Virus record (IMG/VR): IMGVR_UViG_3300007513_000010
Length of the DNA: 64,000 nt
Origin: a virus
Direction: 5' to 3' (one strand)
The notes below the pieces were generated by a model that did no database searches, was not told where the DNA came from, and saw nothing but the letters and a program-made list of their open reading frames with translations. A program made the position numbers and the translations under genes. This document shows, piece after piece, positions 20,961 through 64,000 of the stretch. Positions within the stretch are counted from its first letter, which is position 1, and every line of letters begins with the position of its first letter.

Positions 20961-22334
20961 ATGAATACAAAAACAATCATGCTCAAATTGAGCAAAAATT
21001 CATCAGTGGCTAGAGTGCCACTAAACAGCAAAGGGGTTATGCAGTATATTTTTTGCATCAATGCCCTTGACCCGGGAGACATCGCGATGATTCCCAAAAG
21101 TAAGTCTCAGCCAAGAGATTTGGATACGAACTCTCCAAAGATCGCGGCGATTAGAAAGTCAATGCGCGAAAAGCAAGGTCTTTCTGTAAAGAATGGAGGA
21201 CTGGAGATAACAATAGACCCAGATTCATTTCAGTATAGTGAAGAAGACGGTTGGGTCAAATTCACATGCTCTACTAAGTTTTGCGGATCATGGGACGGCC
21301 AACATACCACCGCAGCAATTTTGCAAGAAATTGCAGATATTTTACAGGGTAGATCCGAGGTCGGATTTGAGTTTCAAACTTGTAGAATAGTGCTGACGGA
21401 GGATTCTTATTTTGACTCCTTAGAAGAGAGGAGAGAGGTTGCTTGTGCAATCAATCATCGCACTCCTCAGGAGCCTCGCTCAGAGCATAATGTCAGAGGC
21501 GACTTTGATACACTAAAGAACAACTTGACAAAGTCATTTGGAAATATTGGTTTCAAGCAGAATCAAAAATATCCTCAGACCCTTGAGATTATACCAAAAG
21601 ATTCCAGTGTAACAGAAGTTACAGCACTTTTGGCTCAGTATATGGGTCTTAGTGCTTATGATGGGCAGGACATCGAATATGCCAATAAAGCAAGAAGAAA
21701 AGGAGCTAGAATCGTAAAGGACTTCTGGCCCAAAACAGCAAGTTACTCTGAGTTTTCAAGCCAGGTAGTTACTATGGCGGATACAACATTGGAAATCTGT
21801 GATTATATTCAGGACTCTTGGAGTACCATCAATGGTTATGAGAACTACCGAGTTTTGAGAAAGCACTCGAAAACTAAATTTAACAAACCCGTGAACCTTA
21901 AGGAATCTGAAAGATACATTTATCACAGATTTACCAAACCTTCAGTGGCTGTTGCAAACCCTAGTATTACAACTTCTTTGGAAGTGAAAAGTGCAATTTT
22001 GGAAGATTTCCTGCCAGTTGTTTTAAGAGCAGTCCTAAATTGCGTGGTAAAGGTTGATAACAAATATAAAGGAAATGGAGGTCCTCTGTTTTCTTTGAAT
22101 ATTCCACTTTCTGAGATTAAGGATTTTTGGGATTTTGCAAAAGAAGAAGTTTTAAAAGAATTTGAAGAAATTTTTTGCAAGAACTTTCAAACTGCAAATT
22201 ATAGAACTTTTATTATTGTGGAGAATCATTTGATTTGGAACAAGGTGAGTCAAAAGGTCAATGGCCTCTATACAGACTATCAGCTTTCATCTGTAAAAAC
22301 GGCAATGAAAGCAATAGAGGTGGCAAATGGCTAA
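20961..22334 (+). CDS. AIPR-like (ParB/Srx superfamily) protein
   Basis: QPR, KNGGLEI and WDGQHT motifs. AAGGAG SD before ATG 20961. Confidence 0.6.
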   Translation: MNTKTIMLKLSKNSSVARVPLNSKGVMQYIFCINALDPGDIAMIPKSKSQPRDLDTNSPKIAAIRKSMREKQGLSVKNGGLEITIDPDSFQYSEEDGWVKFTCSTKFCGSWDGQHTTAAILQEIADILQGRSEVGFEFQTCRIVLTEDSYFDSLEERREVACAINHRTPQEPRSEHNVRGDFDTLKNNLTKSFGNIGFKQNQKYPQTLEIIPKDSSVTEVTALLAQYMGLSAYDGQDIEYANKARRKGARIVKDFWPKTASYSEFSSQVVTMADTTLEICDYIQDSWSTINGYENYRVLRKHSKTKFNKPVNLKESERYIYHRFTKPSVAVANPSITTSLEVKSAILEDFLPVVLRAVLNCVVKVDNKYKGNGGPLFSLNIPLSEIKDFWDFAKEEVLKEFEEIFCKNFQTANYRTFIIVENHLIWNKVSQKVNGLYTDYQLSSVKTAMKAIEVANG

Positions 22335-23448
22335 GGCTTCCAAACTCAAAAAGGGTGCTTTAGATATTGCTTCTATCAGAGGCATTATCAACAAGAAGGC
22401 TGGTAGAGAGGTTGCTCACTCACTTCAGGATAATAATCCAACTGAAGTGAGTGAATGGATCTCTACCGGATCAAGGTGGTTGGATTCAATTATCTGCAAG
22501 GGGAAGCTTGCTGGCATACCAGTCGGTAAGATTTCGGAGATTGCCGGCTTGGAAGCAACCGGCAAATCATTCATGGCTGCACAAGTGGCTGGTAATGCTC
22601 AGAAGATGGGCATTGACGTGGTTTACTTCGATTCCGAGTCAGCCCTTGACCCAAGTTTTCTAGAAAGAGCAGGTTGCGACCTAGAGCGCCTTATGTATGT
22701 TCAGGCTGAATCAGTTGAATTTGTCCTGGAGACTATTGAAGAGTTGCTAGGGACAGGGAACAAGTGGCTGTTTATATGGGATTCCCTGGCTCTAACACCT
22801 TCTATGTCAGATGTTGAGGGGGATTTCAACCCTCAGTCATCGATGGCTGTAAAGCCAAGGATTTTATCTAAGGGTATGTCAAAATTGACAGTACCAATCG
22901 CTAACAGTAAAGCAACGTTTCTTGTACTCAATCAGTTAAAAACAAATATTACACGGTCACCATCTGAGGCTATGACAACTCCTTATGTAACCCCAGGGGG
23001 CAAAGCGATGCATTATGCTTATTCTTTGCGAATTTGGCTTACTGGGCGAAAAGCTAAAGCCTCTTTTGTGCAAGATGATAATGGTTTCAGGATAGGTTCA
23101 GAAGTCAAAGCAAAGCTTGAAAAATCTCGTTTCGGTACAGCCGGCCGACATTGCAATTTTAAGATCCTATGGGGGGACGAGAGTATCGGAGTCCAAGATG
23201 AGGAGAGTTGGTTTGATGCGATTCAGGTCTCTGATAGGCTTCTCCAATCAGGGGCTTGGTTTACTTTGGTTCAGAATGATGGTACTGAAGTAAAGTTCCA
23301 GCGCAAGAACTGGGTAAGCAAGTTGGCCGATGAAAAATTCAAACAAAGTGTCTTGACAATTATGGACGAAGATGTTATTATGAAGTTCAAGAATAGAGAA
23401 GGCAAAGCTGACGATTTCTATGACACGGAAGATCCTCCGGTCGAGTAA
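22327..23448 (+). CDS. recA: RecA/UvsX recombinase
   Basis: ISTGS..LD, Walker A GLEATGKS, YFDSESALD, WDSL and TPGGKA. Confidence 0.95.
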   Translation: MAKASKLKKGALDIASIRGIINKKAGREVAHSLQDNNPTEVSEWISTGSRWLDSIICKGKLAGIPVGKISEIAGLEATGKSFMAAQVAGNAQKMGIDVVYFDSESALDPSFLERAGCDLERLMYVQAESVEFVLETIEELLGTGNKWLFIWDSLALTPSMSDVEGDFNPQSSMAVKPRILSKGMSKLTVPIANSKATFLVLNQLKTNITRSPSEAMTTPYVTPGGKAMHYAYSLRIWLTGRKAKASFVQDDNGFRIGSEVKAKLEKSRFGTAGRHCNFKILWGDESIGVQDEESWFDAIQVSDRLLQSGAWFTLVQNDGTEVKFQRKNWVSKLADEKFKQSVLTIMDEDVIMKFKNREGKADDFYDTEDPPVE

Positions 23449-41563: not shown

Positions 41564-43144
41564 ATGACCATTAATTTGGATCGAGGCTGGGGTCTTAGGG
41601 AAAAGATCTTAGCTGGTGTAAATACATTAGCAGACTGCGTGTCTACTACTTTGGGCCCCAAAGGCCAGAATGTTTTAATTCAAAGAAAGGGTTCTCCACC
41701 CTTCGTCACAAAGGACGGAGTAACGGTAGCAAAAAACATCCACCTTGAAGACCCCTTTGAGAACGCCGCGGCCGAAGTGGTGAAGGAGGTTTCAGCAAGA
41801 ACAAACGCAGAAGCGGGTGACGGCACAACAACTTCAACGGTGTTAGCGAGCGTAATACTGAACCAGTCCTCGAAATATATTCAGTCAGGTGTATCACCCA
41901 TTGAGATAAAGAGAGGCCTAGAAGGTTGTTTGTCTTTTTTTATGGAAGAGATTGAAAAACATGCAAAGCCGCTCTCTTCTTTGGAAGAGATCAGACATGT
42001 TGCAACAATTTCAGCCAACAATGACCCCGCCCTCGGTGATTTGGTAGCAACGGCTGTTGATAGAGTTGGCAAAGCCGGATCTATTACTATAGAGGAGTCC
42101 CGCAGCTTGGAGACTAGTTTGGAACTGGTTGAGGGCTTTAGAGTAGACAGCGGCTGGACAGCTGGAGCCTTTGTTACTGATGAGCGTAGAAAGGTTGTCA
42201 GATACGACGACCCGCTGTTTTTGATAACTGACTCAAAGATAGATACGGTAGAGGAAATCTTACCTGCTCTGGAAATTGCAGCTAGGGAGTCAAAACCCCT
42301 AGTCATTGTAGCTGATGATGTATCCGGCCAGGCTCTGGCCGCTTTAATAATGAATTCTGTTAGAGGATCTATGAAGGTTTGTGCTATCAAAGCTCCACGA
42401 TATGGCGAAGAGAGGCGCCAGATCATGGAAGACATGGCAATTACCACCGGCGCAAAGTTTTTTCGCAAAGACAAGGGCGATAACCTAAGAGAGTTGAATA
42501 TTAATGATTTTGGATCAGCGCGCTCTGTCGAAGCATCTAGAAATAAAACAACAATCGTAGACGGAGACGGAGATCTAGAATCATTGGACTCTAGGATTGA
42601 ACACCTTCGGGAAACGATTCACGAACTTGATTTGCAAGAAGCAGCGCCTTATCAGGAGAGGTTAACCCGGCTTTCTTCCGGGGTTGCTATCCTCCGCGTC
42701 GGCGCATCAACCGAGGTCGAACTAAAAGAAAAGAAGCACCGCCTTGAGGATGCCCTTGAAGCCGTCCGTGCAGCGCAGGAGAACGGCATTGCCCCCGGAG
42801 GTGGTATCACACTATTGAAAATTGCAAAAAGCCTATCAGAAGCTAATTTAGAGCTTGCCAACGAAGACCAAGAGGTCGCTATTAAAATCTTTAAAAAGGC
42901 ACTAGAGTCCCCATTCAGAATTATCGCGATTAATGCGGGTTCATCACCAGACATTCTTTTAGCAGCTGCAGAAAAATTAGAAGGAGAAAACCAAGGTTAC
43001 GACTTTTCGGGAAAGATTGAGGTTGTCGATATGATTGAAGCAGGAATTATTGATCCGGTTAAAGTTACAAAGTGCGCAGTTAAGAATTCAGTATCAGCTT
43101 CTGCAACTTTATTGTTAACTAATCATGGAATTATCGAGAATTGA
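41564..43144 (+). CDS. groL: Chaperonin GroEL
   Basis: TLGPKG, TKDGVTVA, AGDGTTTSTVLA, PGGG and GIIDPVKV. No GGM tail. Confidence 0.97.
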   Translation: MTINLDRGWGLREKILAGVNTLADCVSTTLGPKGQNVLIQRKGSPPFVTKDGVTVAKNIHLEDPFENAAAEVVKEVSARTNAEAGDGTTTSTVLASVILNQSSKYIQSGVSPIEIKRGLEGCLSFFMEEIEKHAKPLSSLEEIRHVATISANNDPALGDLVATAVDRVGKAGSITIEESRSLETSLELVEGFRVDSGWTAGAFVTDERRKVVRYDDPLFLITDSKIDTVEEILPALEIAARESKPLVIVADDVSGQALAALIMNSVRGSMKVCAIKAPRYGEERRQIMEDMAITTGAKFFRKDKGDNLRELNINDFGSARSVEASRNKTTIVDGDGDLESLDSRIEHLRETIHELDLQEAAPYQERLTRLSSGVAILRVGASTEVELKEKKHRLEDALEAVRAAQENGIAPGGGITLLKIAKSLSEANLELANEDQEVAIKIFKKALESPFRIIAINAGSSPDILLAAAEKLEGENQGYDFSGKIEVVDMIEAGIIDPVKVTKCAVKNSVSASATLLLTNHGIIEN

Positions 43145-45448: not shown

Positions 45449-45581
45449 GGTTCACTTGTTGGCGGCTATAATTACCGCCGTTTTGTTTTATTGTAAGTAT
45501 GGTTTAAGATGAATAGGTTTTATAATATTGTGTTGTTGTGTTGGGTGATTTCTTTGATTGCTTTAGGGTGGGTCACGCAAT

Positions 45582-45875
45582 GTGCGCAGCAAGAAATTGA
45601 CATTCAGAAGTTACAAGAAAGAAGACTTAATCGTAGGTGATTTAGTTTATCACCTTCTTTATGGTCGGGATTGGGTAGGTCTATTGTGTGACATCAATAC
45701 TGGCCCTTCAGTTATGTCGTCAAAACGCCCAATGGCTATAGTAGCAACACTTCCAGGTACAAGATATGAATTTTTTTTTAGAAAATCCTTGACGGCCTAT
45801 AGGATATCTGATAATATAGGTTATGTATCAATAAATTGGCTTTATAAATTTGACAACAAAAGGAAAAAACGATGA
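45582..45875 (+). CDS. KOW/SH3-like small protein
   Basis: LIVGDLV motif. Confidence 0.55.
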   Translation: MRSKKLTFRSYKKEDLIVGDLVYHLLYGRDWVGLLCDINTGPSVMSSKRPMAIVATLPGTRYEFFFRKSLTAYRISDNIGYVSINWLYKFDNKRKKR

Positions 45876-46751: not shown

Positions 46752-48611
46752 ATGAGTAAAGTAATTGGAATTGATTTGGGGACGAGCAATTCGTGTGTAG
46801 CGGTAATGGAATCTGGCTCTCCAAAGGTCATCACAAATGAGGAAGGGTCCAGAACTACCCCTTCCGTTGTAGCTTACGCTAGAGGGGACATCTTGGTTGG
46901 CAACCCAGCGAAACGCCAAGCAGTCACGAATCCTAAGAATACTATATATTCTGCAAAGCGCTTTATTGGCATGCGCTTTGAGGAGATCGAGGCCGAGGCG
47001 ACAAACATGCCCTTTGAAATAAAGAAAAATTCGAAAGGTATGTGCGAGATAGTCGCAGGAGAAAAATCGTTAGCACCACAGGTGGTGTCGGCACAGGTTT
47101 TGGTAAAGATGAAAAATGCAGCTGAAGCCTATTTGGGAGAAGAAGTCAGTCGGGCGGTAATCACAGTTCCTGCGTACTTTAATGACGCTCAGCGCCAGGC
47201 AACCCGGGACGCGGGAAAGATTGCTGGACTTCACGTAGAAAGAATTATCAACGAGCCAACTGCCGCGGCCCTCGCCTATGGCCTCAACAAGGGTCAAGAC
47301 AAAAAGATCTTGGTTTATGATTTGGGCGGCGGCACTTTTGATGTTTCGATTTTGGAAATAGGTGATGGCGTCATCGAAGTGATAAGCACAAACGGAGATA
47401 CTCATCTTGGCGGCGACGACATAGATAACTTGCTTATTGATTGGATGGTCGATAGCTTTGAGAAGGAGAATGGCATAAATCTTAAAAGTGAGGCTATGGT
47501 CATGCAACGCCTTCGAGAGGCGGCAGAAAAAGCAAAGATAGAGCTTTCGTCTGCACAGCAAACTAACATCAATTTACCGTTTATAACTGCAGATCAGACC
47601 GGCCCGAAACATTTACAGATAGACCTTACCAGGGCCTCTTTTGAGCAAATGATAGATTCTTTGGCGGATAAAACGATGATTCCAGTGTCAAACGCTCTGA
47701 AAGATTCATCGCTGGCAATTTCAGACATTGACGAAATTGTTCTTGTTGGCGGCTCAACCCGGATCCCATTAGTCCGCCAAAAGGTTGAGGAACATTTTGG
47801 TAAAAAGGTCTCATCGACCGTTAACCCGGACGAAGTGGTCGCTCTGGGTGCTGCCGCCCAGGCTGGTGTGTTTACTGGTGAGGTAAATGACATATTGCTG
47901 CTAGACGTGACTCCCCTTTCTCTAGGTTTAGAAACAATGGGAGGCGTCATGACGCGCCTTATTGAGAGGAACACCACTGTGCCTTGTTCAAAAACCCAAG
48001 TGTTCACAACTGCGGAAAACAACCAGCCTGCAGTGGACATCAAAGTTTTGCAGGGAGAGAGACAGTTGTCTAGAGACAATAAGCTTTTGGGCACCTTCAG
48101 GCTCGATGGGCTACCCCCAGCCCCGCGCGGCGTGCCACAAATCGAGGTGACGTTTGATATCAATGCTGATGGTCTTGTCTCAGTGAGCGCTAAAGACATT
48201 GCGACAAACAAGAGTCACAACATTACAATTACTGGGTCTGGAGCTATGTCTCCCGCTGAGATTGACCGCCTCGTCGATGAGGCAAAAGCAAACGAAGAAA
48301 AGGACAAAGAAAAAAGGAAGAGTATAGAGACAAGAAACCAACTAGAGACTTTAGTTTTCAGATCTGAAAATCTCATTAACAGCGGAACGATACCCCAGCA
48401 GGAGTTAGCAGAATTGGAGACTGCCATTTCGGAGACCAAGAGAGTGCTTGAATCTGGTACCGATCAAGAGGTCGAGGATCAGTTCGCTTCTTTTTCTACC
48501 GTATTGGATAGGGTCGGCCAGGCTATGTATGCCCACCAGCCACCGCCTGCCCCTTCGGAAGATTCGTCAGATGACGATGTAGTTGATGCTGAGTTTGAAG
48601 AGACGGTTTAA
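46752..48611 (+). CDS. dnaK: Chaperone DnaK (Hsp70)
   Basis: [42 protein letters not shown] and C-terminal VVDAEFEE. Confidence 0.98.
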
Positions 48612-52876: not shown

Positions 52877-53223
52877 GAATAAAGACTATTTCTTTTCTTT
52901 TCAAAGAAAAGAGGGTATTTCTAGAGTGTAATATGTTTGGAAAGTTTATGATCCCCGTAGTAGAGAAAAAGAGAGGAAAAAGAAGAACTGTGGAAAAGCC
53001 ATTTTCAGCCAGACAGGTTATTGATCATCACAAAGTTAAGATCAGTGATCCTTCACTAACTCTCAACAACGGAGAAAAGGTAAGAGTGTTCCAAGGAGGA
53101 GACCCTGCTTTTATGCTGACTTATCCGGCCTCCGTAATAGATTCACACGATGAAAGTTACGCAAGAGATGTTTTAGAAGAAGAAGATTCAAGCTGGTATG
53201 ACCATGCCTCGTTCCCATTCTGA
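52873..53223 (+). CDS. Hypothetical protein
   Basis: Coupled 116-aa ORF. Confidence 0.6.
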   Translation: MRIKTISFLFKEKRVFLECNMFGKFMIPVVEKKRGKRRTVEKPFSARQVIDHHKVKISDPSLTLNNGEKVRVFQGGDPAFMLTYPASVIDSHDESYARDVLEEEDSSWYDHASFPF

Positions 53224-53467
53224 TGCAGACCCCAAGCGCCATCCCTTTGAGATCGGCGAATTGGTACAAATTGTCATGCACGGTTCGATCCACTTTTCAG
53301 AAAAGGGGATAGTTGTGGACAGGATTCATTACACTGATCCAGGAAAAATTGAATCTGCACACCTGGATGAATATAGTTGTTGTGTTTTGTTGCAGGATCA
53401 CCCTGGTACTTCCGTGATGGTGAGGGCGAAGTGGCTTGTTTCATTATCTAAAGTAAAAAGTGCTTGA
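53198..53467 (+). CDS. KOW/SH3-like small protein
   Basis: FEIGELVQ...GIVV...RAKWL. Paralogous to the next gene. Confidence 0.6.
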   Translation: MTMPRSHSDADPKRHPFEIGELVQIVMHGSIHFSEKGIVVDRIHYTDPGKIESAHLDEYSCCVLLQDHPGTSVMVRAKWLVSLSKVKSA

Positions 53468-53491
53468 CAGGTTTCCTTATTATGTTATAAT
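53464..53491 (+). promoter_or_regulatory. Sigma70-like promoter, probably giving a leaderless mRNA
   Basis: TTGACA, 16-nt spacer ending TGn, then TATAAT. ATG is 6 nt downstream with no SD. Confidence 0.7.
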
Positions 53492-53497
53492 ATATAT

Positions 53498-53713
53498 ATG
53501 AGACAAATTTTTGATGTAGGGGACATTGTCAAATACGGGACACTTAAAGGTCTAGTAATCGAGAGCCAGCCAATCTTAGCCCTAGGAAAGAAAGAAAGAA
53601 AACTTCACGTAGAAGAGTATCGCTGCAAGGTTAAATTCTTTTCGTCGGAGGATTCCCCACCACGATGGATTCGCGCAAAACACTTAGTACACTTGTCAAA
53701 AATAAGTGAATAA
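53498..53713 (+). CDS. KOW/SH3-like small protein
   Basis: FDVGDIVK...GLVI...RAKHL. Confidence 0.65.
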   Translation: MRQIFDVGDIVKYGTLKGLVIESQPILALGKKERKLHVEEYRCKVKFFSSEDSPPRWIRAKHLVHLSKISE

Positions 53714-55902: not shown

Positions 55903-56973
55903 ATGGCAGTTGACTTCAATACATTCGTAAATATCGTTGAACACGTAACAGACGTGCGTAAGCCAGTGCTTTTGCGCGGACGTCACGGGGTTGGTAAATC
56001 AACTGTAGTTTATCAATTTGCAGAGAGCAAGGGTCTCCCGGTAGTTGAAAGGAGGGCCTCTCAAATGACAGAGGGGGATCTCGTGGGCTTGCCAGAGATT
56101 GAAGGAGAATCAACTAAGTTTAATCCTCCAGACTGGTATAAAAAGGCTTGTGATATGCCCGTTGTTCTTTTCCTAGATGAAGTCGACCGCGCCACTCTGG
56201 AGGTTAGGCAGGGTATTTTTGAATTAACTGACAGCAGAAAGCTAAATGGTCATAACTTGCATTCCGATACTCTAATCTTTGCTGCTGTAAATGGAGGAGA
56301 GCATGGAGAACAATATCAAGTTGGTGAAATGGATCCAGCAGAATTGGATCGCTGGACTGTTTTTGACTTGGAACCCTCGGTTGAGGACTGGCTGAGCTGG
56401 GCTTCTGAAGGCGATATTTCAACTGAGGTTTGGGACTTTATCAATCAGAACCGAGTGCACCTGGAACATAGTGATGATTTTGAACCTAACAAGGTCTACC
56501 CTTCTCGTCGTTCGTGGGAGCGTTTAGACCAGTGCTTAACTTCCGCAGAACTGCTAAGTGAGTCTTCGCCTGTCTTGTACAACTTGACTGCTGCATTTTG
56601 TGGCTTTGAGGCTGCGGTGGCATTTAACGATTTTATCGCTAATTATGATCGTCAAGTCACTCCGGAGGACATTCTAGTTAATGGGGACTTTAGCAAAGTC
56701 GGGGACTTTGGGATCAACGACCACTCGGCCTTAATTGAAAAGTTTGAGGCAAGTGAGTCCTTCAAGGAAGAACTAGAGCAAACCCAGGTAAACAACTTGG
56801 CTCGATACTTCCTGATGCTTCCTTCAGAGGTGGCGATGAAGCTATGGAGCGTCCTTGGCTCCGGCGCCCTGGACAACACAATTAAGCTACACCAGGCAAC
56901 TGTTGATGATAAGTCAGTATCAGAATATCTGGTTGAAATTTTAGCTGGAGAGCAAGGTAAGGAAAGCAAATGA
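55903..56973 (+). CDS. MoxR-like AAA+ ATPase
   Basis: GRHGVGKS, LFLDEVDR, AAVN, MDPAELDRW and PSRRSW. Confidence 0.92.
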   Translation: MAVDFNTFVNIVEHVTDVRKPVLLRGRHGVGKSTVVYQFAESKGLPVVERRASQMTEGDLVGLPEIEGESTKFNPPDWYKKACDMPVVLFLDEVDRATLEVRQGIFELTDSRKLNGHNLHSDTLIFAAVNGGEHGEQYQVGEMDPAELDRWTVFDLEPSVEDWLSWASEGDISTEVWDFINQNRVHLEHSDDFEPNKVYPSRRSWERLDQCLTSAELLSESSPVLYNLTAAFCGFEAAVAFNDFIANYDRQVTPEDILVNGDFSKVGDFGINDHSALIEKFEASESFKEELEQTQVNNLARYFLMLPSEVAMKLWSVLGSGALDNTIKLHQATVDDKSVSEYLVEILAGEQGKESK

Positions 56974-58187
56974 CCCAGGCAGCAACAACGAGCAAGTTTG
57001 ATTTGAATATGCACACAGCTCGGCTGTTAATGGATGAACCTTTCTTCGCAGCCATTTCACGTAGGATTGACAAGAGGGCTTCAACCGCACTCCCCACCGC
57101 GGGAGTGATGGTTAACCCGAAAACTTCCCAGTTTGAGCTGCTTTATAATCCAGAGTTTTTTGAAAAGCTAACGGATGACGAACGTCGTGATGTTCTCAAG
57201 CACGAATATTATCATATTGTGTTCTTGCATGTTACGAGCCGGCTGCCGGCTGGCGTGCACATGAAGCTGTGGAATATTGCAACCGATCTGGCTATCAATT
57301 CACACTTGTACAATCTTCCTGAGGGTGGCCTGATCCCTGGCGAAGGTGCTTTTGAGAGTCTCCCACGTGGGAAATCTGCAGAGTGGTACCTCGCCCAGCT
57401 CCCAGAGGTGTTTAAGTCGTCTCCGAACCCCGAAGGTTCAGAGGATTCTGACTCTGGAGGTGAGAGTCAGGGCGGATCATCGGAAGGCGACCTACCTGAT
57501 ACTTTAGATGATCATAGTGGTTGGGGCGAGTGTACGCAAGAAGCAAAAGATATGGCTCGCGAGCGATTGAAAGACATTGTAAGAAAAGCAGCAGATGAGT
57601 GCTCGAAGTCTTCGAATTGGGGATCTGTATCTGCCTCAGTGAAGCAAGAGATAATTAAGACACTTCAGAGTAAGGTTTGTTGGAAGAAGCTTTTAAGGTA
57701 TTTTGTGAAAACCTCCCAAAGAGCCAACCGCTCTGGAAGTATGAAAAGGATTAACAGGCGTTATCCCTATATTCACCCTGGTCGCAAAACAAATAGGGTA
57801 GCACAGGTTGCAATTAGTATTGATCAGTCTGGATCCGTGGATAACGAGATGCTTTCGATGTTCTTTGCAGAACTTAACAAGCTCGCAGAAATTGCAGAAT
57901 TTACAGTCATTCCTTTCGATACGCGCGTTGATGAGAACCTAGTGTATGTTTGGAAGAAGGGGATGAAAAAGAAGTGGGAGCGCGTCATGTGCGGAGGGAC
58001 AGACTTTAACCCTCCTACCGAATACGTTAACCAAAGGGGTTTCGACGGTCACATTATTCTAACAGATCTTTGTGCTCCAAAGCCAAAGTCAAGTAAGTGT
58101 CAACGAATGTGGATGACTACTCCGTATTTTGCAGAACGCCCGTACTTTGAAACTAAAGAGAAAATTGTAGCAATCAGTGATAAGTAG
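56970..58187 (+). CDS. Metallopeptidase-like plus vWA domain protein (DUF2201 type), partner of the AAA ATPase
   Basis: HEYYH, WNIATDLAIN, IDQSGS, GGTDF and ILTD. Confidence 0.9.
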   Translation: MTQAATTSKFDLNMHTARLLMDEPFFAAISRRIDKRASTALPTAGVMVNPKTSQFELLYNPEFFEKLTDDERRDVLKHEYYHIVFLHVTSRLPAGVHMKLWNIATDLAINSHLYNLPEGGLIPGEGAFESLPRGKSAEWYLAQLPEVFKSSPNPEGSEDSDSGGESQGGSSEGDLPDTLDDHSGWGECTQEAKDMARERLKDIVRKAADECSKSSNWGSVSASVKQEIIKTLQSKVCWKKLLRYFVKTSQRANRSGSMKRINRRYPYIHPGRKTNRVAQVAISIDQSGSVDNEMLSMFFAELNKLAEIAEFTVIPFDTRVDENLVYVWKKGMKKKWERVMCGGTDFNPPTEYVNQRGFDGHIILTDLCAPKPKSSKCQRMWMTTPYFAERPYFETKEKIVAISDK

Positions 58188-58211
58188 GGGTTTGTAATGA
58201 AATGGGGAAAA

Positions 58212-58668
58212 ATCACCTCCATCATCGTTTTAGGGGTGGTGATCTTAGCTTCAATAGGGTTTTTCCTTTGGTGTGTGCTGCCAAAGGAAAAATACTGGTT
58301 ATAGTCACTAAATTATCAGGGCGCAAAGAAGAGTTGTTCTTAGTCACCCTTTGACCAGTTGAGGGTTAAAAACAAAGTATCCGTGCGCGTATGTCTAACT
58401 CGCGTCGACTTTTGACATCAGAATTGTTCAGGCTTACTAACTAAGTTGCTGCGAAAGAAAATAAAATTAAGATAGGCTGGCGAAACATTGCGGCGAGGAC
58501 AGCATGTCTCACAACTTGGGAGTATAATTTAGTGATGATAACTGTTTCATTGGGGTTTATATACAAATTTTTACTGGCAATATCTATTTTTTTTGGTATA
58601 CTCACAGTATTTTTATATTTTGAACAGTAGTTAGGATAGGTGCGTAAAATCTTACGCACATTTCCAAC
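58212..58668 (+). ncRNA. Candidate large structured non-coding RNA (family unassigned, strand assumed)
   Basis: Multiple strong helices, including a 12-bp perfect long-range stem (58305-58316 with 58524-58535), a 12-bp hairpin (58260-58292) and an 8-bp hairpin (58640-58659). No long ORF. Confidence 0.45.
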
Positions 58669-58704
58669 ATCAGAGGGTTTCGGCTTGGGGTAATTGCTGT
58701 TATA

Positions 58705-59130
58705 TTGGGCTTTTTATATGCCAATTTTTTGGATTGGGGTACACATATATTGTTGCACAAACCGCGCGGCAAATCAAAATTAAAATTTCACTGGAAGCAT
58801 CACAGGATTGCCAGAAAGAACCATAATCGCGATCCGGATTATAAATTAAAAGTGTGGCATAATGAGACGAAAATAACCGTTGCTGCCATGATTCTTCATG
58901 CGCCTCTTCTGTTCTATTTTCCTGTATTTGCTGGTGTAGTTCTGGCTTATGCTACGGTGTACATCTTTCTACATCGAAAAACTCACGAGCATGTAGAGTT
59001 TTTTAAGAAATGGTGCCCCTGGCATTACGAGCATCACATGGGTAAAAATCAAAATGCTAACTGGTGTGTTGTTTGTCCGCTCATGGATCACATAATGGGA
59101 ACAAGAGAGAAGTGGCTAGAAAAGGAGTAA
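58705..59130 (+). CDS. Fatty acid hydroxylase / sterol desaturase family protein
   Basis: His boxes HILLH, HWKHH, HRKTH and HYEHH, plus NW and MDHIMGT. Start codon uncertain. Confidence 0.85.
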   Translation: MGFLYANFLDWGTHILLHKPRGKSKLKFHWKHHRIARKNHNRDPDYKLKVWHNETKITVAAMILHAPLLFYFPVFAGVVLAYATVYIFLHRKTHEHVEFFKKWCPWHYEHHMGKNQNANWCVVCPLMDHIMGTREKWLEKE

Positions 59131-59137
59131 CCAATGT

Positions 59138-59335
59138 ATGTCGTTGAAGCCGGGAGACTTAGTGGCTTGCTACCTAACAAACACAACAGAGTTTGAAACG
59201 CTTTTTCAATGGGGCATCGTGCTAGAGGTTAATGACACTCTAGGTGATATCTTGGTCCATGATAACGGAGGTATTCAGAGGTGGTGGCCTCACCGTCGAT
59301 GGCGACTGCTTAAAGAAGCACCAAAAAAAACTTGA
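59138..59335 (+). CDS. KOW/SH3-like small protein
   Basis: LKPGDLV...GIVLEV. Confidence 0.65.
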   Translation: MSLKPGDLVACYLTNTTEFETLFQWGIVLEVNDTLGDILVHDNGGIQRWWPHRRWRLLKEAPKKT

Positions 59336-59360
59336 CTTTTATATCAATATAGTGTAATAT
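59332..59360 (+). promoter_or_regulatory. Sigma70-like promoter
   Basis: TTGACT-17nt-TAATAT. Confidence 0.6.
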
Positions 59361-59392
59361 TATATATATCAACAATAGAGAAGGGCCTAACA

Positions 59393-59764
59393 ATGGGCTA
59401 CAGATCAGAAGTTTGCATCGCTTTGACCGATGATGCAGTAAGAGTACTCAGCACGATTCTGGAACATTTGCCAGCTTCTCATGAAGCGAGAAATCTTCTG
59501 AGAGATGCACAAATTCAACCGGGCTACCTTTCCGACTTCCAAGCCCACAAGGACTCAAGCAAAGATTGTGAACTTAAACTGTATTGGGACTATGTTAAGT
59601 GGTACGAGGGGTATGAATGTGTTGATTTTGTTGAAACTTTCTTGCAGGAAATTCCTCACGAAGATTACAGGTTTGTTCGCGTCGGCGAAGAATCAGATGA
59701 TGTGGAAGAAAGGGGCGACTACTACGATTCGGATGTTTTCGTTCGGAGATCAATATCATGGTAG
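59393..59764 (+). CDS. Conserved hypothetical phage protein
   Basis: MGYRSEV...VKWY...RVGEESDD pattern. Confidence 0.7.
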   Translation: MGYRSEVCIALTDDAVRVLSTILEHLPASHEARNLLRDAQIQPGYLSDFQAHKDSSKDCELKLYWDYVKWYEGYECVDFVETFLQEIPHEDYRFVRVGEESDDVEERGDYYDSDVFVRRSISW

Positions 59765-60063
59765 TTGGTCAGTTGGTAAGAGAGGATTGCAGTGACGAAT
59801 CCAAAGCCCCTCTTGGTACAATCGTAAAGGTTACAGAGCTTATCCTCCACAGGAACTCCCAGTGGAAGGCTGAAGTCGAAAGATGGAAAAGCTATAATAC
59901 AGAATGTGACCAAACTATGTGCTCTGTTATTCGCCCAGGCAAGGTTGCAAGTGTACGATGGCAGAACGACCCAAAGAAGCTAACTGTGCACATATTTTAT
60001 GATGATTGCGGAGGCCGCTCCTCTATAAACTTAAGCACAAATTCAGTGAGCTTGGTACAGTAA
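59758..60063 (+). CDS. KOW/SH3-like small protein
   Basis: MVVGQLV...GTIVKV. Confidence 0.55.
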   Translation: MVVGQLVREDCSDESKAPLGTIVKVTELILHRNSQWKAEVERWKSYNTECDQTMCSVIRPGKVASVRWQNDPKKLTVHIFYDDCGGRSSINLSTNSVSLVQ

Positions 60064-60239
60064 TGGAATCTTTTTTGATTGTTGTTTTCGTATTGTTTGT
60101 TTCCACTTATGTTTTGGCAAGAATTTCGTCCATCGCTGAACAGTCCAAGTGGGACGAAATTAAAAAACTTAGAGACGAAGCTAGAAAAAGGCATATTGAC
60201 GCCCTTTATGGCAGAAAAGAGAAAGGAAAAGACAAATGA
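60063..60239 (+). CDS. Small membrane-anchored protein
   Basis: MESFLIVVFVLFVSTYVL followed by a charged tail. TAATG coupling. Confidence 0.55.
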   Translation: MESFLIVVFVLFVSTYVLARISSIAEQSKWDEIKKLRDEARKRHIDALYGRKEKGKDK

Positions 60240-60448
60240 AGGTGGGAGATTTGGTTCGACTGTCGGCATATGGCAAGAAACTTAAGCGTACCGGGTGGAT
60301 TTCGCATGATGATGTCGGGATCATAACAAGGATAAATACATGGGATGAACATCAGGTCCGATGGGTGAAGAGTGACTGGAACCTAGTCCGCTCGCGTTGG
60401 GTTTACGAACGCTTTGTTTCAAGAAAAGACTTGAAGTTTGTAAAATAG
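60236..60448 (+). CDS. KOW/SH3-like small protein
   Basis: MKVGDLV...GII...VRW...DLKFV. Confidence 0.7.
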   Translation: MKVGDLVRLSAYGKKLKRTGWISHDDVGIITRINTWDEHQVRWVKSDWNLVRSRWVYERFVSRKDLKFVK

Positions 60449-60459
60449 CAAAGCACTAA

Positions 60460-60533
60460 GCCCTGGTAGCTCAGCTGGATAGAGCATCGGACTTCTAATC
60501 CGCAGGTCGCAGGTTCGAATCCTGCTCAGGGCG
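60460..60533 (+). tRNA. tRNA-Arg (TCT)
   Basis: GCCCTGG/TCAGGGC acceptor stem, GCTC/GAGC D stem, CTTCTAA loop and GGTTCGAATCC. Confidence 0.95.
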
Positions 60534-60653
60534 CACTTAATGGAAGAAAAGGAACAAGAAGATGTACGATTGTGGACATTTGCACGATTTTATCGTATTT
60601 TACAAGATGAACTTGGTGTATTGGGATAGTGAAATGATTAAGCTATTCTACGA

Positions 60654-60905
60654 ATGTTTTCAAACAGCATGAAAACATTAAGACCGCAGCTCCAACCCGG
60701 CGATATGATCTATTATCACTCAAGTTATGCAACGGCGATTCTCTTACAGAGAAAGGGAAAACTTTGGCAGTATTCCCTCAGAAGCCCAAAAAGATCAAAT
60801 TTGAGTTATATGCTGGTTTCGTTGCAGTCGGCGGAAACACGTAAATTTGAAGAAGGGATTGCTTCTGGAAAATTTAAATATTTTCCAGTAAACAAGAAAG
60901 GTTAG
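60654..60905 (+). CDS. KOW/SH3-like small protein
   Basis: LQPGDMI. Confidence 0.5.
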   Translation: MFSNSMKTLRPQLQPGDMIYYHSSYATAILLQRKGKLWQYSLRSPKRSNLSYMLVSLQSAETRKFEEGIASGKFKYFPVNKKG

Positions 60906-60907
60906 AC

Positions 60908-60988
60908 ATGGATTTTTTAGGTGGCGTAATCACTATTGCTATCGGCCTGTGGGTGGGCCAACTGTTAATTGATTGGTGGCGCAAGTAG
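60908..60988 (+). CDS. 26-aa single-TM peptide
   Basis: MDFLGGVITIAIGLWVGQLLIDWWRK. Confidence 0.45.
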   Translation: MDFLGGVITIAIGLWVGQLLIDWWRK

Positions 60989-61085
60989 GTGAGACATAGA
61001 TGTCTCATGTTTAAGTTTGAAATACTGCTTGATCTGTAGGTCGCGGTATGATAAGATATATATACAACTTAAGTTAGGAGCACCA

Positions 61086-61385
61086 ATGTATATTGGTTTT
61101 ATGGAAGCTAAGAAGAATATAAACAAGCAGGCGACGAAAATACTTCACGATATTGCGTCAGCGTATGAGAGGGGTGATCTTGACGACCCAAATGCTTCAA
61201 TTATGTACTGTTCATTTCTGGCTTGCATTTGTGAGGGCAAGGTGAGTGGTATCATAGACGAGGAGTCGTGTGAGGTAAAGTGGTCACTGACACCCGAATA
61301 CGCAAAAGAGGTAGAACAACTTCAGAAGGCGATAATTGAAAAGGCTTCATTGGCCGAGAACGTCATAAAGGGTCCATGGGGATGA
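61086..61385 (+). CDS. Hypothetical protein
   Basis: AGGAG SD before ATG 61086. C-terminal NVIKGPW. Confidence 0.6.
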   Translation: MYIGFMEAKKNINKQATKILHDIASAYERGDLDDPNASIMYCSFLACICEGKVSGIIDEESCEVKWSLTPEYAKEVEQLQKAIIEKASLAENVIKGPWG

Positions 61386-61561
61386 ATCTTAAAAGAGGCG
61401 ATCGAGTCAAAATCACAAACAAGAACGACATCGAAGGTGAGGTAATTGGATTTTATGCTCATACAATGGATGCCGTAATCAAGACAGACACCGGAAATGA
61501 GTGGATTGTTAGCCCTATTCACTTGGAGTCGGTGAAGAAATGTCGAAAGAAGACGAAGTGA
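61382..61561 (+). CDS. KOW/SH3-like small protein
   Basis: LKRGDRVKI...GEVI...HLESV. Confidence 0.65.
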   Translation: MNLKRGDRVKITNKNDIEGEVIGFYAHTMDAVIKTDTGNEWIVSPIHLESVKKCRKKTK

Positions 61562-61727
61562 TATATCACCTGACGTATAGAATCAACAAGGGTTCAAAGC
61601 AACACATCTATGCTATCAAGAAGATCTGCGAGAGCAAGAAAAAGAAGCTGCTCGAAGAGCATGGCGACAATATTAAGTTCTCTCGCATCGAGAGGGCATA
61701 AAACTTTTCATCGAAAAGGATTCTTGA

Positions 61728-62801
61728 ATGAACTTTCTAAGTGAGAAAGACTTTTTTCAATATATAGAAAATCTCGAAGATTTTGGCTGGAGCACTTCCA
61801 CGCTGGAATGTGACCCCGCCCAATCCCACGAGAGGGTTCGATTTCCACGTCGGTTTGTGCATATGATTTGTAAGAGATGTTCGGGCAAGAAAGAAGCTTT
61901 GCACCCTTCCTACATCTACGACCCTGCACAGGCAGAGCTTAGTGCAGAGAGCGGTCTTAAGGAAAATACCAAAATCGTTATTGAAACCAGGGATCATAAG
62001 AGCAAGAGGTTCATAAGCGGCGTAAGTGATTATCTCTCGAACTACGAGTATGAGAGAGAAGAGTGGAAACAACAATCTTTTTCTTTTTTACCAACCGTCG
62101 TAACATTGATGGTTGACATTCAGGATTTAAACAAAATTGATGAATGTCGGACGTGCAAGAAAATAGACGAACTTGTTGAGATTATAGAAGAACAAAACGT
62201 CAATCCTATTAATAGTGGGGACAGGCTATTTGAAGAGCTTTTGTCTCCATTGAGGTTGGCAACCTGTCAGTTATCTTTGCCTGGTGTTGATATTAAACCT
62301 AAGCTGGGAAGATTTGCGGCGACCTGCTTGTCTCACGGCAACTTCTCCGGTCACATAAATGTTAGGACCGGTCTTGTCGATGGCCTTTGTCCGGAATGCT
62401 TAAGATTAGAAAAGGGGTCTATCGGAGAGTCGTTGTTGAGAATAGTATTGGAGGAGTTTACATCTTGCAGCTGGTCTAGTGTGCGACCAGACTTTCTGAA
62501 GAATCCTAAAACTGGATACAACCTTGAATTGGATTGCTACAATCGAAAACTTAATGCTGCATTTGAATTTCAAGGTCGGCAACATTACGAACCTATTGAG
62601 TTTTTCGGCGGCGAAGAAACTTTTGTTAAGCAAGTAGAAAGGGATGAGTTAAAAACTCGATTGTGTGAGTTAAATGATGTTAAGTTGTTTAAGATCGACG
62701 GTCGAAGATGTCCCAAAGATAAGGCAAAAGCAAAGTCCTTTTTATTAAAAGTTGTAAAGAAAGTTTTAAAGAAAGAACTGGACTTTACCACTGAATTCTG
62801 A
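61728..62801 (+). CDS. Zn-ribbon plus PD-(D/E)xK (Vsr/DUF559-like) putative free-standing endonuclease
   Basis: CxxC pairs and SIGE...LELDCYN..LNAAFEFQGRQHY...RDELK..LC. Confidence 0.75.
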   Translation: MNFLSEKDFFQYIENLEDFGWSTSTLECDPAQSHERVRFPRRFVHMICKRCSGKKEALHPSYIYDPAQAELSAESGLKENTKIVIETRDHKSKRFISGVSDYLSNYEYEREEWKQQSFSFLPTVVTLMVDIQDLNKIDECRTCKKIDELVEIIEEQNVNPINSGDRLFEELLSPLRLATCQLSLPGVDIKPKLGRFAATCLSHGNFSGHINVRTGLVDGLCPECLRLEKGSIGESLLRIVLEEFTSCSWSSVRPDFLKNPKTGYNLELDCYNRKLNAAFEFQGRQHYEPIEFFGGEETFVKQVERDELKTRLCELNDVKLFKIDGRRCPKDKAKAKSFLLKVVKKVLKKELDFTTEF

Positions 62802-62828
62802 TAGTATAGGAAATACATAGTTTAAGCT

Positions 62829-62904
62829 GGAGCACTGGCGCAATAGGCAGCGCATCGGACTTTTAATCCGCTGGTTCCGGGTTCGAGTCCCGGGTGCTCC
62901 ACCA
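62829..62904 (+). tRNA. tRNA-Lys (TTT)
   Basis: GGAGCAC/GTGCTCC acceptor stem, CTTTTAA loop, GGTTCGAGTCC and encoded CCA. Confidence 0.96.
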
Positions 62905-62918
62905 AGAAGGTTTGCATT

Positions 62919-63140
62919 ATGAAGATTGGTGACTTGGTGACTTGGTCGGACTTCTACGAAACCTGGATGTTGACTGTGGGCTGGTCTAAGCATCCGTTAG
63001 TCGGTCCTACTTTTTCTAAAGCGGATAAGATAGGCATTATTGTTTATTCTTCTCCCGACAAACGCCACGTTATGTGGGAGGACAATACATGCTTGGCCCA
63101 TGACCCCAGAGAGCTGGAGGTGTTGAGTGAAGCGCGGTGA
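62919..63140 (+). CDS. KOW/SH3-like 'MKVGDLV' family mini-protein
   Basis: MKIGDLV...GII...VMW...LEVLSEAR. Confidence 0.7.
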   Translation: MKIGDLVTWSDFYETWMLTVGWSKHPLVGPTFSKADKIGIIVYSSPDKRHVMWEDNTCLAHDPRELEVLSEAR

Positions 63141-63291
63141 CTTGGTGACAATGAATGGTTATCCAGAGTTGTGTATTGTCACGAGAATTTCATTAGGCAA
63201 AGTCTGGCTTATCGAAATAGAGACGGGCTTGAGGTCTTGGACTCATATTTGTAATTTGGAGCTGGTCAGTAAAAGCGAGAATAGGACATGA
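63127..63291 (+). CDS. KOW/SH3-like 'MKVGDLV' family mini-protein
   Basis: GTG start with GAGG SD. (M)KRGDLV...LELVSKS. Confidence 0.65.
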   Translation: MKRGDLVTMNGYPELCIVTRISLGKVWLIEIETGLRSWTHICNLELVSKSENRT

Positions 63292-63497
63292 AAGAGTTCA
63301 AAGTGGAGGTAGTGTATATAAAGAAAGACTATGCCTCCGTAGTGCTTGAAGCCACAAATAGAAGAGAAGCTCTTGAAAAGGCAAAAAAACTACAACGGAA
63401 TGACTTTAGTGTAATCGACAGAAACACGGCGCACGAGTGGAAAATAAGACCGATGACGAGTTTTTATAATATGCTGGTTTCCTTTTTCGGTGGATAG
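63288..63497 (+). CDS. Hypothetical protein
   Basis: FKVEV...LEATNRREALEKAK. Confidence 0.6.
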   Translation: MKEFKVEVVYIKKDYASVVLEATNRREALEKAKKLQRNDFSVIDRNTAHEWKIRPMTSFYNMLVSFFGG

Positions 63498-63714
63498 AAT
63501 ATCAGTGAAGGTCGGAGATTTAGTTAAGACCCCCACATGGCCATGTTCTTCTCGAAGGCTGGTTTATAATACCCCTCATTATATTTGGTCGAACCAACTA
63601 GCACTTGTTGTTGGTTTTGACGACAGGCCCGGCAGTAAGGGCTACGTGAGGGTGGTTTTGCAATCCACCGCGCATCATTGCGTTTTTCACAAAGACTCGC
63701 TGAGTTTGCTATGA
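63490..63714 (+). CDS. KOW/SH3-like 'MKVGDLV' family mini-protein
   Basis: VKVGDLVK. Start could be GTG 63505. Confidence 0.65.
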   Translation: MDRISVKVGDLVKTPTWPCSSRRLVYNTPHYIWSNQLALVVGFDDRPGSKGYVRVVLQSTAHHCVFHKDSLSLL

Positions 63715-63896
63715 GGGTCGGAGATTTAATAAAGGTATGTTCAGTTTTGGATGGTGTCCACCCAGTCGGAATTGTAATTAAGGTGGTTGAAGACTCAGGC
63801 GACCAACCGCGTCATATGATGTGTCTCTACTTAGATGGTGACTATGAGCCGCTAAGTTACGACACAGATTTTGAGGTAATCAGTGAAAGTCGGTGA
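63711..63896 (+). CDS. KOW/SH3-like 'MKVGDLV' family mini-protein
   Basis: MRVGDLIK...GIVI...FEVISESR. Confidence 0.7.
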   Translation: MRVGDLIKVCSVLDGVHPVGIVIKVVEDSGDQPRHMMCLYLDGDYEPLSYDTDFEVISESR

Positions 63897-63915
63897 TTTG
63901 GTGAGAGTAATATGA
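63883..63915 (+). pseudogene. 10-codon remnant of a 'MKVGDLV' gene
   Basis: GTG-KVGDLVRVI-TGA with intact SD. The stop overlaps the next ATG. Confidence 0.55.
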
Positions 63916-64000
63916 AAGTTGGTGCCAGAGTTCGTGATGCTTTGTTCTACCCTGATAGTGGTATCAACAGAGGTACAGGAACAATTATAGAAATCGAAGA
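63912..64000 (+). CDS. KOW/SH3-like family mini-protein (3' truncated)
   Basis: MKVGARVR...GTIIEI runs off the window. Confidence 0.6.
   Translation, partial: MKVGARVRDALFYPDSGINRGTGTIIEIE

Follow-up and report, generated by a model that had tools for sequence, protein, structure and literature searches.

A dual-coding junction joins small SH3-like barrel genes of a large marine phage into an array whose cassettes are probably shuffled by recombination

The array at the end of the window

The 64,000-nucleotide stretch of the virus record IMGVR_UViG_3300007513_000010 (hereafter the window) is part of a large phage with all genes on the plus strand, and encodes a tail sheath, a DnaB-like helicase, a ribonucleotide reductase, a DnaE-like polymerase, DnaK, GroEL, a UvsX-like recombinase and three tRNAs. 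Its last 5 kb are a run of small genes, and the subject of this report is the array of mini-genes that follows a tRNA-Lys at 62919-64000, together with the short DNA junction that connects them. A preliminary reading made from the letters of the window only (the sequence-only reading) had described a series of genes starting with MKVGDLV at this place, and the series is borne out by the sequence and its open reading frames (ORFs). Its components are four complete mini-genes of the MKxGDLV type, a small gene unrelated to them, a stub of 10 codons and a fifth member truncated by the window end (Table 1). The motif [KR]xGD[LI][VI] occurs eight times on the plus strand of the window, with seven of the occurrences N-terminal in short ORFs of the final 5 kb (starting at 59138, 60236, 62919, 63127, 63505, 63711 and 63883), and is absent from the minus strand. 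What the window holds is a small, partly eroded edge of an array.

A junction that codes in two frames

The comparison set consisted of 80 related IMG/VR loci of at most 21 kb each, anchored on the neighbouring vWA-like gene (56970-58187), which is 54-71% identical across them; many of the contigs are ~185-192 kb long. A motif-based inventory of these loci returned 675 members with a median of 64 residues, an undercount that misses starts with MQ, MN or VH, and a profile hidden Markov model returned 914. Consecutive members are joined by a 14-nucleotide (nt) overlap in 204 of 294 cases and by a 4-nt ATGA overlap in another 48. The consensus of the 204 longer overlaps reads TTGGAGGTnATCA(G/A)TGAAAGTCGGTGATTTGGT. 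This 33-nt consensus was built from relatives only, and the three copies in the window (Table 1) match it at 23 to 32 positions, compared with best scores of 19-22 in 20 shuffled windows. The two stretches that the sequence-only reading had aligned, 63117-63148 and 63873-63904, do match at 25 of 32 positions, and the partial third copy, ATCAGTGAAGGTCGGAGATTT, starts at 63501. The motif for which a wider scan had been proposed recurs within the window as well as among relatives: GGTGAYTTGGTGA is found exactly at 62928, 63136 and 63892, and with up to two mismatches at 10 places where 2.7 are expected.

At 63127 and 63883, the only canonical 14-nt overlaps in the window, the GTG start lies 11 nt upstream of the preceding TGA, with GAGG 6 nt before the GTG; elsewhere in the array, neighbours meet in an ATGA overlap or across a 7-nt gap. 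One motif thus supplies the C-terminal tail and stop of one gene and the Shine-Dalgarno sequence (SD), start and N-terminus of the next, as had been supposed. In the upstream frame the gene ends L-E-V-I-S-E-S-R-stop, with the SD GGAGG at -11 to -7 inside the Leu-Glu-Val codons, 6 nt before the start. In the downstream frame the next gene starts (V/M)-K-V-G-D-L-V, the upstream TGA being formed at the Gly-Asp boundary (GGTGAY), and a stop codon frequently stands two codons before the GTG, so that the start assignment is tight. The 33 nt lie entirely within coding sequence, and the final four residues of the upstream protein are for the most part set by the overlap. The start is GTG at 70% of the 14-nt-overlap joins, at 6% of the ATGA joins and in 19% of the members that have no other member in the 60 nt before them. 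In the window, the C-terminal motif is seen in all full members but member 3 (Table 1).

Genes outside the family can also precede a member with this 14-nt overlap between them, and then end in ESR or ENR. Such genes (L012:12955-13380, L035:6421-6738, L042:5385-5705 and L008:13062-13265; L numbers denote the loci compared) include cytidylyltransferase-like (L012), SWIM-finger-like (L035 and L042) and small membrane-like ones. This means that the 3' half of the junction accepts any upstream gene.

No sigma-70-like promoter was found at the junctions, a scan of 58000-64000 returning 11 promoter-like sites against 11.0 expected, and the same scan found no terminator-like site in the array. A conserved RNA hairpin was considered and rejected, since four junctions that were folded had z-scores of -0.3 to -1.8 and no hairpin in common.

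Codon choice gives a divided answer to the question whether conservation of the junction exceeds what dual coding demands. At -10, within the SD, Glu is encoded by GAG in ~153 of 156 cases and almost never by GAA, against 50% GAG in the background of long ORFs and member interiors, and the preceding Leu codon mostly ends in G; both preferences are consistent with a constraint imposed by the SD. At -5 the Val codon has a free third base, and the block is therefore not simply homogenised DNA. The last sense codon is CGG in 168 of the 204 junctions, although CGG is rare in the background (6-7% of Arg codons). Two further biases are explained neither by dual coding nor by the SD. Ile at -4 to -2 is encoded by ATC in 104 of the 204 junctions, by ATA in 23 and by ATT in 8, even though ATT is the commonest Ile codon (44%), and Leu at +15 to +17 is TTR in 83% against 37% in the background.

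One family of small barrels under purifying selection

The interiors of the mini-genes had been described as showing little similarity, and pairwise identity among window members is indeed 15-24%. They are nevertheless not unrelated. A family profile built without any window sequence recovers all four full array members, with E values from 1.9e-11 to 5e-5, as well as two solitary genes further upstream (Table 1), and the best minus-strand ORF reaches no better than E 2.4. BLAST among members gives full-length matches, typically at 30-40% identity. The members are true homologues and real genes.

The ratio of nonsynonymous to synonymous substitution rates (dN/dS) in the interiors has a median of 0.14 over 91 orthologous pairs, and is 0.07, at a dS of 0.92, between the member at 63711 and its L001 orthologue. 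This indicates purifying selection on orthologous cassettes; positive diversifying selection between orthologues was rejected on the same median, and the proposal that the array diversifies its proteins is not supported. Because the ratio is so low, the system appears to shuffle old, conserved cassettes and not to create new sequence.

AlphaFold2, run with the family alignment, predicts a five-stranded barrel for 63711 (predicted local distance difference test score, pLDDT, 87.5) and the same strand order, with a long first loop, for 63505, the most divergent member (pLDDT 78.4). The best structural matches are the N-terminal SH3-like domain of Hpy99I (3fc3_A; Z 8.4, root-mean-square deviation (rmsd) 1.3 over 53 residues), a Tudor domain (7de9_A; Z 7.8, rmsd 1.6 over 53) and the KOW domain of Spt5 (4zn3_A; Z 7.7), followed by the KOW domain of NusG, the Tudor domain of UvrD/PcrA, PsaE and R67 DHFR; the two models share many of these matches. 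According to these models the members fold as SH3-like barrels of the KOW/Tudor type with five strands and ~60 residues, in agreement with the shared fold suggested earlier. Z scores of 7-8.4 are ordinary for so common a fold, so that no function can be transferred from these matches. Conservation is confined to strand 1 (GDLV), strand 2 (G-I-V), strand 3 (V-x-W), a turn glycine, and strand 5 with the tail, while loops are variable and rich in indels.

Other searches yielded little. Foldseek found no match in the PDB at E 0.001 or better, and a profile search of PDB sequences gave Spt5 at E 6e-5 and the NusG KOW domain at E 0.006. Nothing significant came out of a Pfam scan of the window members (best E 0.035, below the curated cut-off); across the family, KOW (PF00467) was matched by 2 of 132 members, with a best E of 0.002 that does not reach the gathering threshold. 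A PHROG scan of the members assigned no family, and in the ESM Atlas the matches were viral hypothetical proteins throughout, apart from a DsrB lead below threshold.

None of the 914 profile-positive ORFs in the 80 loci is a two-domain fusion, and for this reason separate single-domain products appear to be under selection. P0008 (127 amino acids), from a public protein collection, naturally combines two family domains in a single frame, with LEVVKQ-VKVGDLV at the joint. The best-scoring profile matches in that collection, P0001-P0006, are long proteins with 4-14 tandem SH3-like repeats that match Pfam SH3_15 and DUF1918, which places the family in a broader SH3-like superfamily that uses the barrel as a covalent repeat.

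Turnover of the arrays among related phages

On a slot map of 11 backbone genes and two tRNAs, arrays occupy different slots in different genomes and hold 0-19 copies: 13 between tRNA-Arg and the 61017 orthologue in L001, 19 between the 61017 and 61376 orthologues in L018, and 18 after tRNA-Lys in L008, the slot of the window array. The 656 members of at least 40 residues fall into 477 clusters at 60% identity, and for 600 of 625 members the nearest relative lies in another genome. Cassette types common to related genomes occur in scrambled order. Recent tandem duplication was rejected on these two grounds.

The breaks in synteny coincide with the junction. Of 61 contiguous neighbours beside cassette pairs at least 80% identical, 56 are below 50% identity, four are orthologous (at least 70%) and one is intermediate. 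Across the 56 breaks, identity is ~0.83 as far as -13, has the background level of the junction from -12 to +23, and beyond that falls to the chance level of ~0.27. Segments found by blastn at 80% identity or more have a median length of 208 nt, about one cassette, with left ends clustered at -20 to +9 and right ends at +10 to +29 relative to member starts. L055 differs from L043 by one extra cassette, a difference of 160 nt with the junction repeat on both sides. The arrays are thus neither static nor syntenic among the 80 relatives, and gains, losses and swaps have their boundaries inside the junction, as the sequence-only reading had predicted. From this comparison, recombination between copies of the repeat would account for the insertion, deletion and replacement of genes between relatives. 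The exact identity between junction copies of one genome has a median of 13 nt and reaches at least 20 nt in 14% of pairs.

The window's own cassette, relic and stub

Member 4 provides the window's own example. It is 88.5% identical to L001:14657-14842, against 50-81% for the backbone genes compared, and the nucleotide similarity is confined to 63717-63900, from the start motif to the next junction, with unrelated flanks. Cassettes of this type were found in four contexts (the window, L001, L018 and L155, the last identical to L157), with four different upstream neighbours, four different downstream neighbours and three backbone slots; in L001 one extra cassette stands between it and the next type held in common with L018. 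Metagenome contigs contributed a single locus related to member 4, identical to an IMG/VR one. For member 1 no relatives were found in IMG/VR or the metagenome contigs, and megablast of 58000-64000 against GenBank phages gave no match. As no close relative of the window array was found, the evidence for shuffling comes from the wider clade and this one cassette.

Two further sites may be traces of past exchange. In the junction before member 3 the upstream ATCA is retained without any family gene ending at that point, and the Gly codon is GGA instead of GGT, by which the now useless TGA has been lost. Such a relic would fit the replacement of a former upstream partner by the unrelated gene at 63288-63497, which has ~40% identical homologues in L014 and L009. 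The stub after member 4 is plausibly a deletion remnant; 10-codon stubs number two among ~660 members, the other being L036:372. Through its two overlaps it would preserve a coupling relay between the stop of member 4 (TGA) and the start of member 5 (ATG).

Table 1. Features of the array and of the remainder of the window discussed in the text. E values of family members refer to the relatives-only profile.
Feature	Coordinates	Strand	Evidence and remarks
Member 1, 73 amino acids, ATG start, C-terminus LEVLSEAR	62919..63140	+	Profile E 1.9e-11
Junction 1: SD GGAGG, GTG start 63127, upstream TGA 63138-63140, 14-nt overlap	63114..63146	+	25/33 vs clade consensus
Member 2, 54 amino acids, GTG start, tail LELVSKSENRT continuing into ATGA overlap	63127..63291	+	Profile E 8.8e-8
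Unrelated small gene within the array, 69 amino acids, joined by ATGA overlap	63288..63497	+	Family profile: no match
Relic junction ATCA-GTG-AAG-GTC-GGA	63492..63524	+	23/33 vs consensus
Member 3, 69 amino acids, GTG start after 7-nt gap, without LEVIS tail	63505..63714	+	Profile E 5e-5
Member 4, 61 amino acids, ATG start via ATGA overlap, C-terminus FEVISESR	63711..63896	+	Profile E 1.9e-11
Junction 2, canonical	63870..63902	+	32/33 vs clade consensus
10-codon stub: GTG start in junction 2, 14-nt overlap; TGA overlaps next ATG	63883..63915	+	Sequence and ORF list
Member 5, partial (MKVGARV...), ATGA overlap, cut by window end	63912..64000	+	Weak profile match, E 0.45, 29 residues
Solitary family member, conserved backbone position	60236..60448	+	Profile E 2e-11; same-position orthologues in L001, L008, L018
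Solitary family member, conserved backbone position	59138..59335	+	Profile E 3.7e-6; orthologues in at least 16 loci
tRNA-Lys (UUU)	62829..62904	+	ARAGORN; left border of array
Homing-endonuclease-like gene just 5' of tRNA-Lys	61728..62801	+	phrog_559 E 4.6e-18, phrog_9084
UvsX-like recombinase, candidate enzyme only	22327..23448	+	phrog_97 E 6.4e-57

Proposed mechanism and alternatives

We propose that the mini-genes are translationally coupled cassettes that are shuffled by recombination at a repeat lying within their coding sequence, a reading to which we give a probability of roughly 0.7; the recombinase and the function of the proteins are parts of it that we infer. The region would be the start of an operon-like chain of independent genes of ~60 codons, each encoding one SH3-like barrel with conserved first and last strands (MKVGDLV, LEVIS) and variable loops, in which a standard junction of ~33 nt joins neighbours. 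A ribosome would terminate 11 nt downstream of the next start and re-initiate there, and the whole chain would be translated in this coupled manner from one mRNA. Serving as a short direct repeat, the junction would allow copy-to-copy recombination to delete, duplicate, insert or swap whole cassettes, within one genome or between co-infecting genomes, and exchange at this place would leave both reading frame and coupling unbroken. The phage population would in this way hold a large, open repertoire of old, individually conserved cassettes in changing combinations. Each protein most likely binds a different macromolecular partner, as an accessory or host-takeover factor, although this is a guess. 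A UvsX-like recombinase is encoded in the window, as had been noted, and is a candidate enzyme only.

Several points weigh against this proposal. The exact identity between junction copies is marginal for efficient recombination of the RecA/UvsX type, and exchange must therefore either occur rarely or take a different route. Whatever the mechanism, the loss of recombinants with broken genes to selection would concentrate boundaries at gene ends. The dS of ~0.9 between the orthologues of 63711 means that the exchanges observed are old, and with no close relative of the window array found, neither the age nor the position of any event can be fixed for this lineage. Canonical junctions number only two in the window itself. 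Coupled re-initiation, the single transcript and the function of the SD are likewise steps that we infer from the DNA.

A more far-reaching version of the proposal is less likely than not. The junction would here be a selected, self-contained 'plug' and not a by-product of coding, permitting the exchange, with no dedicated enzyme, of single ready-to-express binder genes from an open pool of hundreds of types as well as the capture of unrelated genes, and the barrels would form a repertoire of scaffolds with variable loops directed at variable host factors, for instance defence systems.

The most serious alternative, which we regard as unlikely, holds that the junction is conserved only for its terminal beta-strands, its ribosome-binding site and the overlapping stop and start, that turnover proceeds by illegitimate or generic recombination, and that selection retains those products whose borders fall between genes. 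Each strongly conserved base can be attributed to protein motif, overlap or SD, the single third base under no such constraint (-5) varies freely, exact homology between junction copies is short, and orthologous cassettes are old (dS ~0.9), all of which would be expected on that account. It sits less easily with boundaries that fall within ~35 nt in essentially all cases, as illegitimate events would improbably be so precise so often, with the L055/L043 indel, which is flanked by the junction repeat itself, and with synonymous choices that go beyond coding and SD (for Ile at -4, ATC is preferred to ATT, and for Leu at +15, TTR to CTN).

Simple tandem duplication followed by divergence in situ, in an array static since the ancestor of the clade and altered among relatives by differential loss only, is largely refuted and very improbable. 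All members do belong to one family, and the arrays do lie in the same general genome region, but the nearest relative is elsewhere for nearly every member (600 of 625), the same cassette types appear in different order and in different backbone slots, and the cassette at 63711 is closer to its L001 orthologue than any backbone gene compared and yet has another slot and other neighbours. Least probable of all is that the overlap serves programmed +1 frameshifting, in which the T of the TGA would be skipped after CGG to yield some multi-barrel fusions: the frame geometry permits such a shift, the rare CGG precedes the stop in most junctions (168 of 204) and the natural two-domain protein P0008 exists, but the site has no slippery P-site for re-pairing, its SD is ~18 nt from the stop, unlike the ~3 nt of the prfB frameshift site, CGG is largely set by the overlapping Val-Gly codons, and with 0 of 914 ORFs fused, fusions are apparently selected against.

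Neighbouring genes

The tRNA-Lys at the left border of the array is 88-90% identical to a tRNA of L001 and L018, which there lies 3' of the orthologues of 61376 and 61540. The homing-endonuclease-like gene, situated between the 61540 gene and tRNA-Lys, is absent from L001 and L018, where those two directly adjoin, and it therefore looks like an insertion beside the array. In L003, a homologue of this gene stands between tRNA-Arg and an array.

A second small family, of ~80 amino acids with a PGD/AGD motif near the N-terminus, occurs alongside arrays (60654-60905 in the window, L155:2750-2994, L018:6281-6562), and in L155 its gene is the upstream neighbour of the 63711-type cassette. This family may be a distant relative of the barrels. 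Weak matches to the family profile (E 0.01-0.05) were also obtained in the small plus-strand ORFs 53177-53464, 53468-53710 and 45567-45872, which on this similarity may be diverged members located away from the array. The window further encodes a GroEL-like chaperonin (phrog_5725, E 2e-139) and DnaK/Hsp70 (at 41564-43144 and 46752-48611); DnaK copies in uncultured phages of 480-735 kb are 47-59% identical to the latter, and those in Lak phages ~50%.

Distribution

IMG/VR has 74 stretches that contain a 28-mer of the junction, many of them belonging to contigs of 185-200 kb, with several sites per genome; GenBank phages gave only chance 19-nt matches. In the collections searched the junction is confined to uncultured marine phages of ~190 kb. 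It was also seen on five contigs of marine metagenome-assembled genomes (L158-L162) labelled as Flavobacteriales, Legionellales, Methylococcaceae, Halobacteriovorax and 'uncultured bacterium'; these contigs are probably phage sequence assigned to the wrong bins, and they point to no consistent host. The protein family extends further: in the public protein collection, 8087 cluster representatives score E 0.001 or better, a number that includes the broader multi-repeat SH3-like proteins; single-domain matches in that collection end in tails of the LEVISESR type. The 914 profile-positive genes of the 80 loci belong to no Pfam or PHROG family. 'MKVGDLV' was not mentioned in the literature searched, and a paper on Far-T4 phages (PMC4360716), in which the terms 'paralog', 'tandem' and 'small ORF' do not occur, does not appear to describe such arrays.

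Comparison with known systems

The proteins resemble the SH3-like barrels of the KOW and Tudor type, such as those in NusG, Spt5, UvrD/PcrA, PsaE and R67 DHFR, in their five strands, their length of ~55-60 residues and a first strand with GD followed by hydrophobic residues, but differ in that they stand alone and remain below the Pfam threshold. At the level of expression, the arrangement recalls termination-reinitiation coupling, which takes place at overlapping stop and start codons of the ATGA and TGATG types. As in such coupling, the stop lies within the ribosome footprint of the next start and the SD is inside the upstream coding sequence, whereas the overlap is here 14 nt long, fixed across hundreds of genes, mostly combined with a GTG start, and dictates the last four residues of the upstream protein. 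The junction is a clean natural test bed for termination-reinitiation at long overlaps with GTG starts.

Integron arrays offer a second parallel, with their small promoter-less cassettes, a recurring element, variable content and order, and a large open pool. The cassettes of the phage array differ in belonging to one family and in being translationally overlapped, and any exchange would be driven by homology and not be site-specific. RNA folding of four junctions showed no attC-type imperfect inverted repeat or folded site, and no integrase was among the PHROG scans of 20 large ORFs, although no dedicated integrase search was made.

The closest resemblance is to the promoter-early stem-loop (PeSL) cassettes described in the hyperplastic regions of T4-type phages (Arbiol et al. 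2010, PMC2839356). In both systems short repeats lie between small accessory genes of large myoviruses and carry the upstream stop, the SD and the downstream start, and in both, recombination between copies explains the insertion, deletion and replacement of whole genes between related phages. PeSLs, however, are intergenic and regulatory, with a sigma-70 promoter and a terminator hairpin by which every gene is transcribed as a separate unit, and the genes beside them are unrelated ORFans (PMC2839356). The junction described here is coding in two frames, is one in which promoter and hairpin were not found, would couple translation and not transcription, and mostly connects members of one protein family. 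Mini-circles have been shown for PeSLs (PMC2839356).

The arrays are, on our best reading, a new variant of the PeSL type of repeat-mediated cassette shuffling. Such shuffling has been known in T4-type phages only for non-coding promoter and terminator cassettes; in the arrays the repeat lies within the coding sequence of both neighbours, and any exchange between junctions would consequently yield intact genes that are already coupled. If the proteins bind host factors, the arrays would amount to a natural combinatorial library with a built-in assembly standard, and should the junction prove to be a selected plug, the system would be a homology-based, translation-coupled viral counterpart of the integron.

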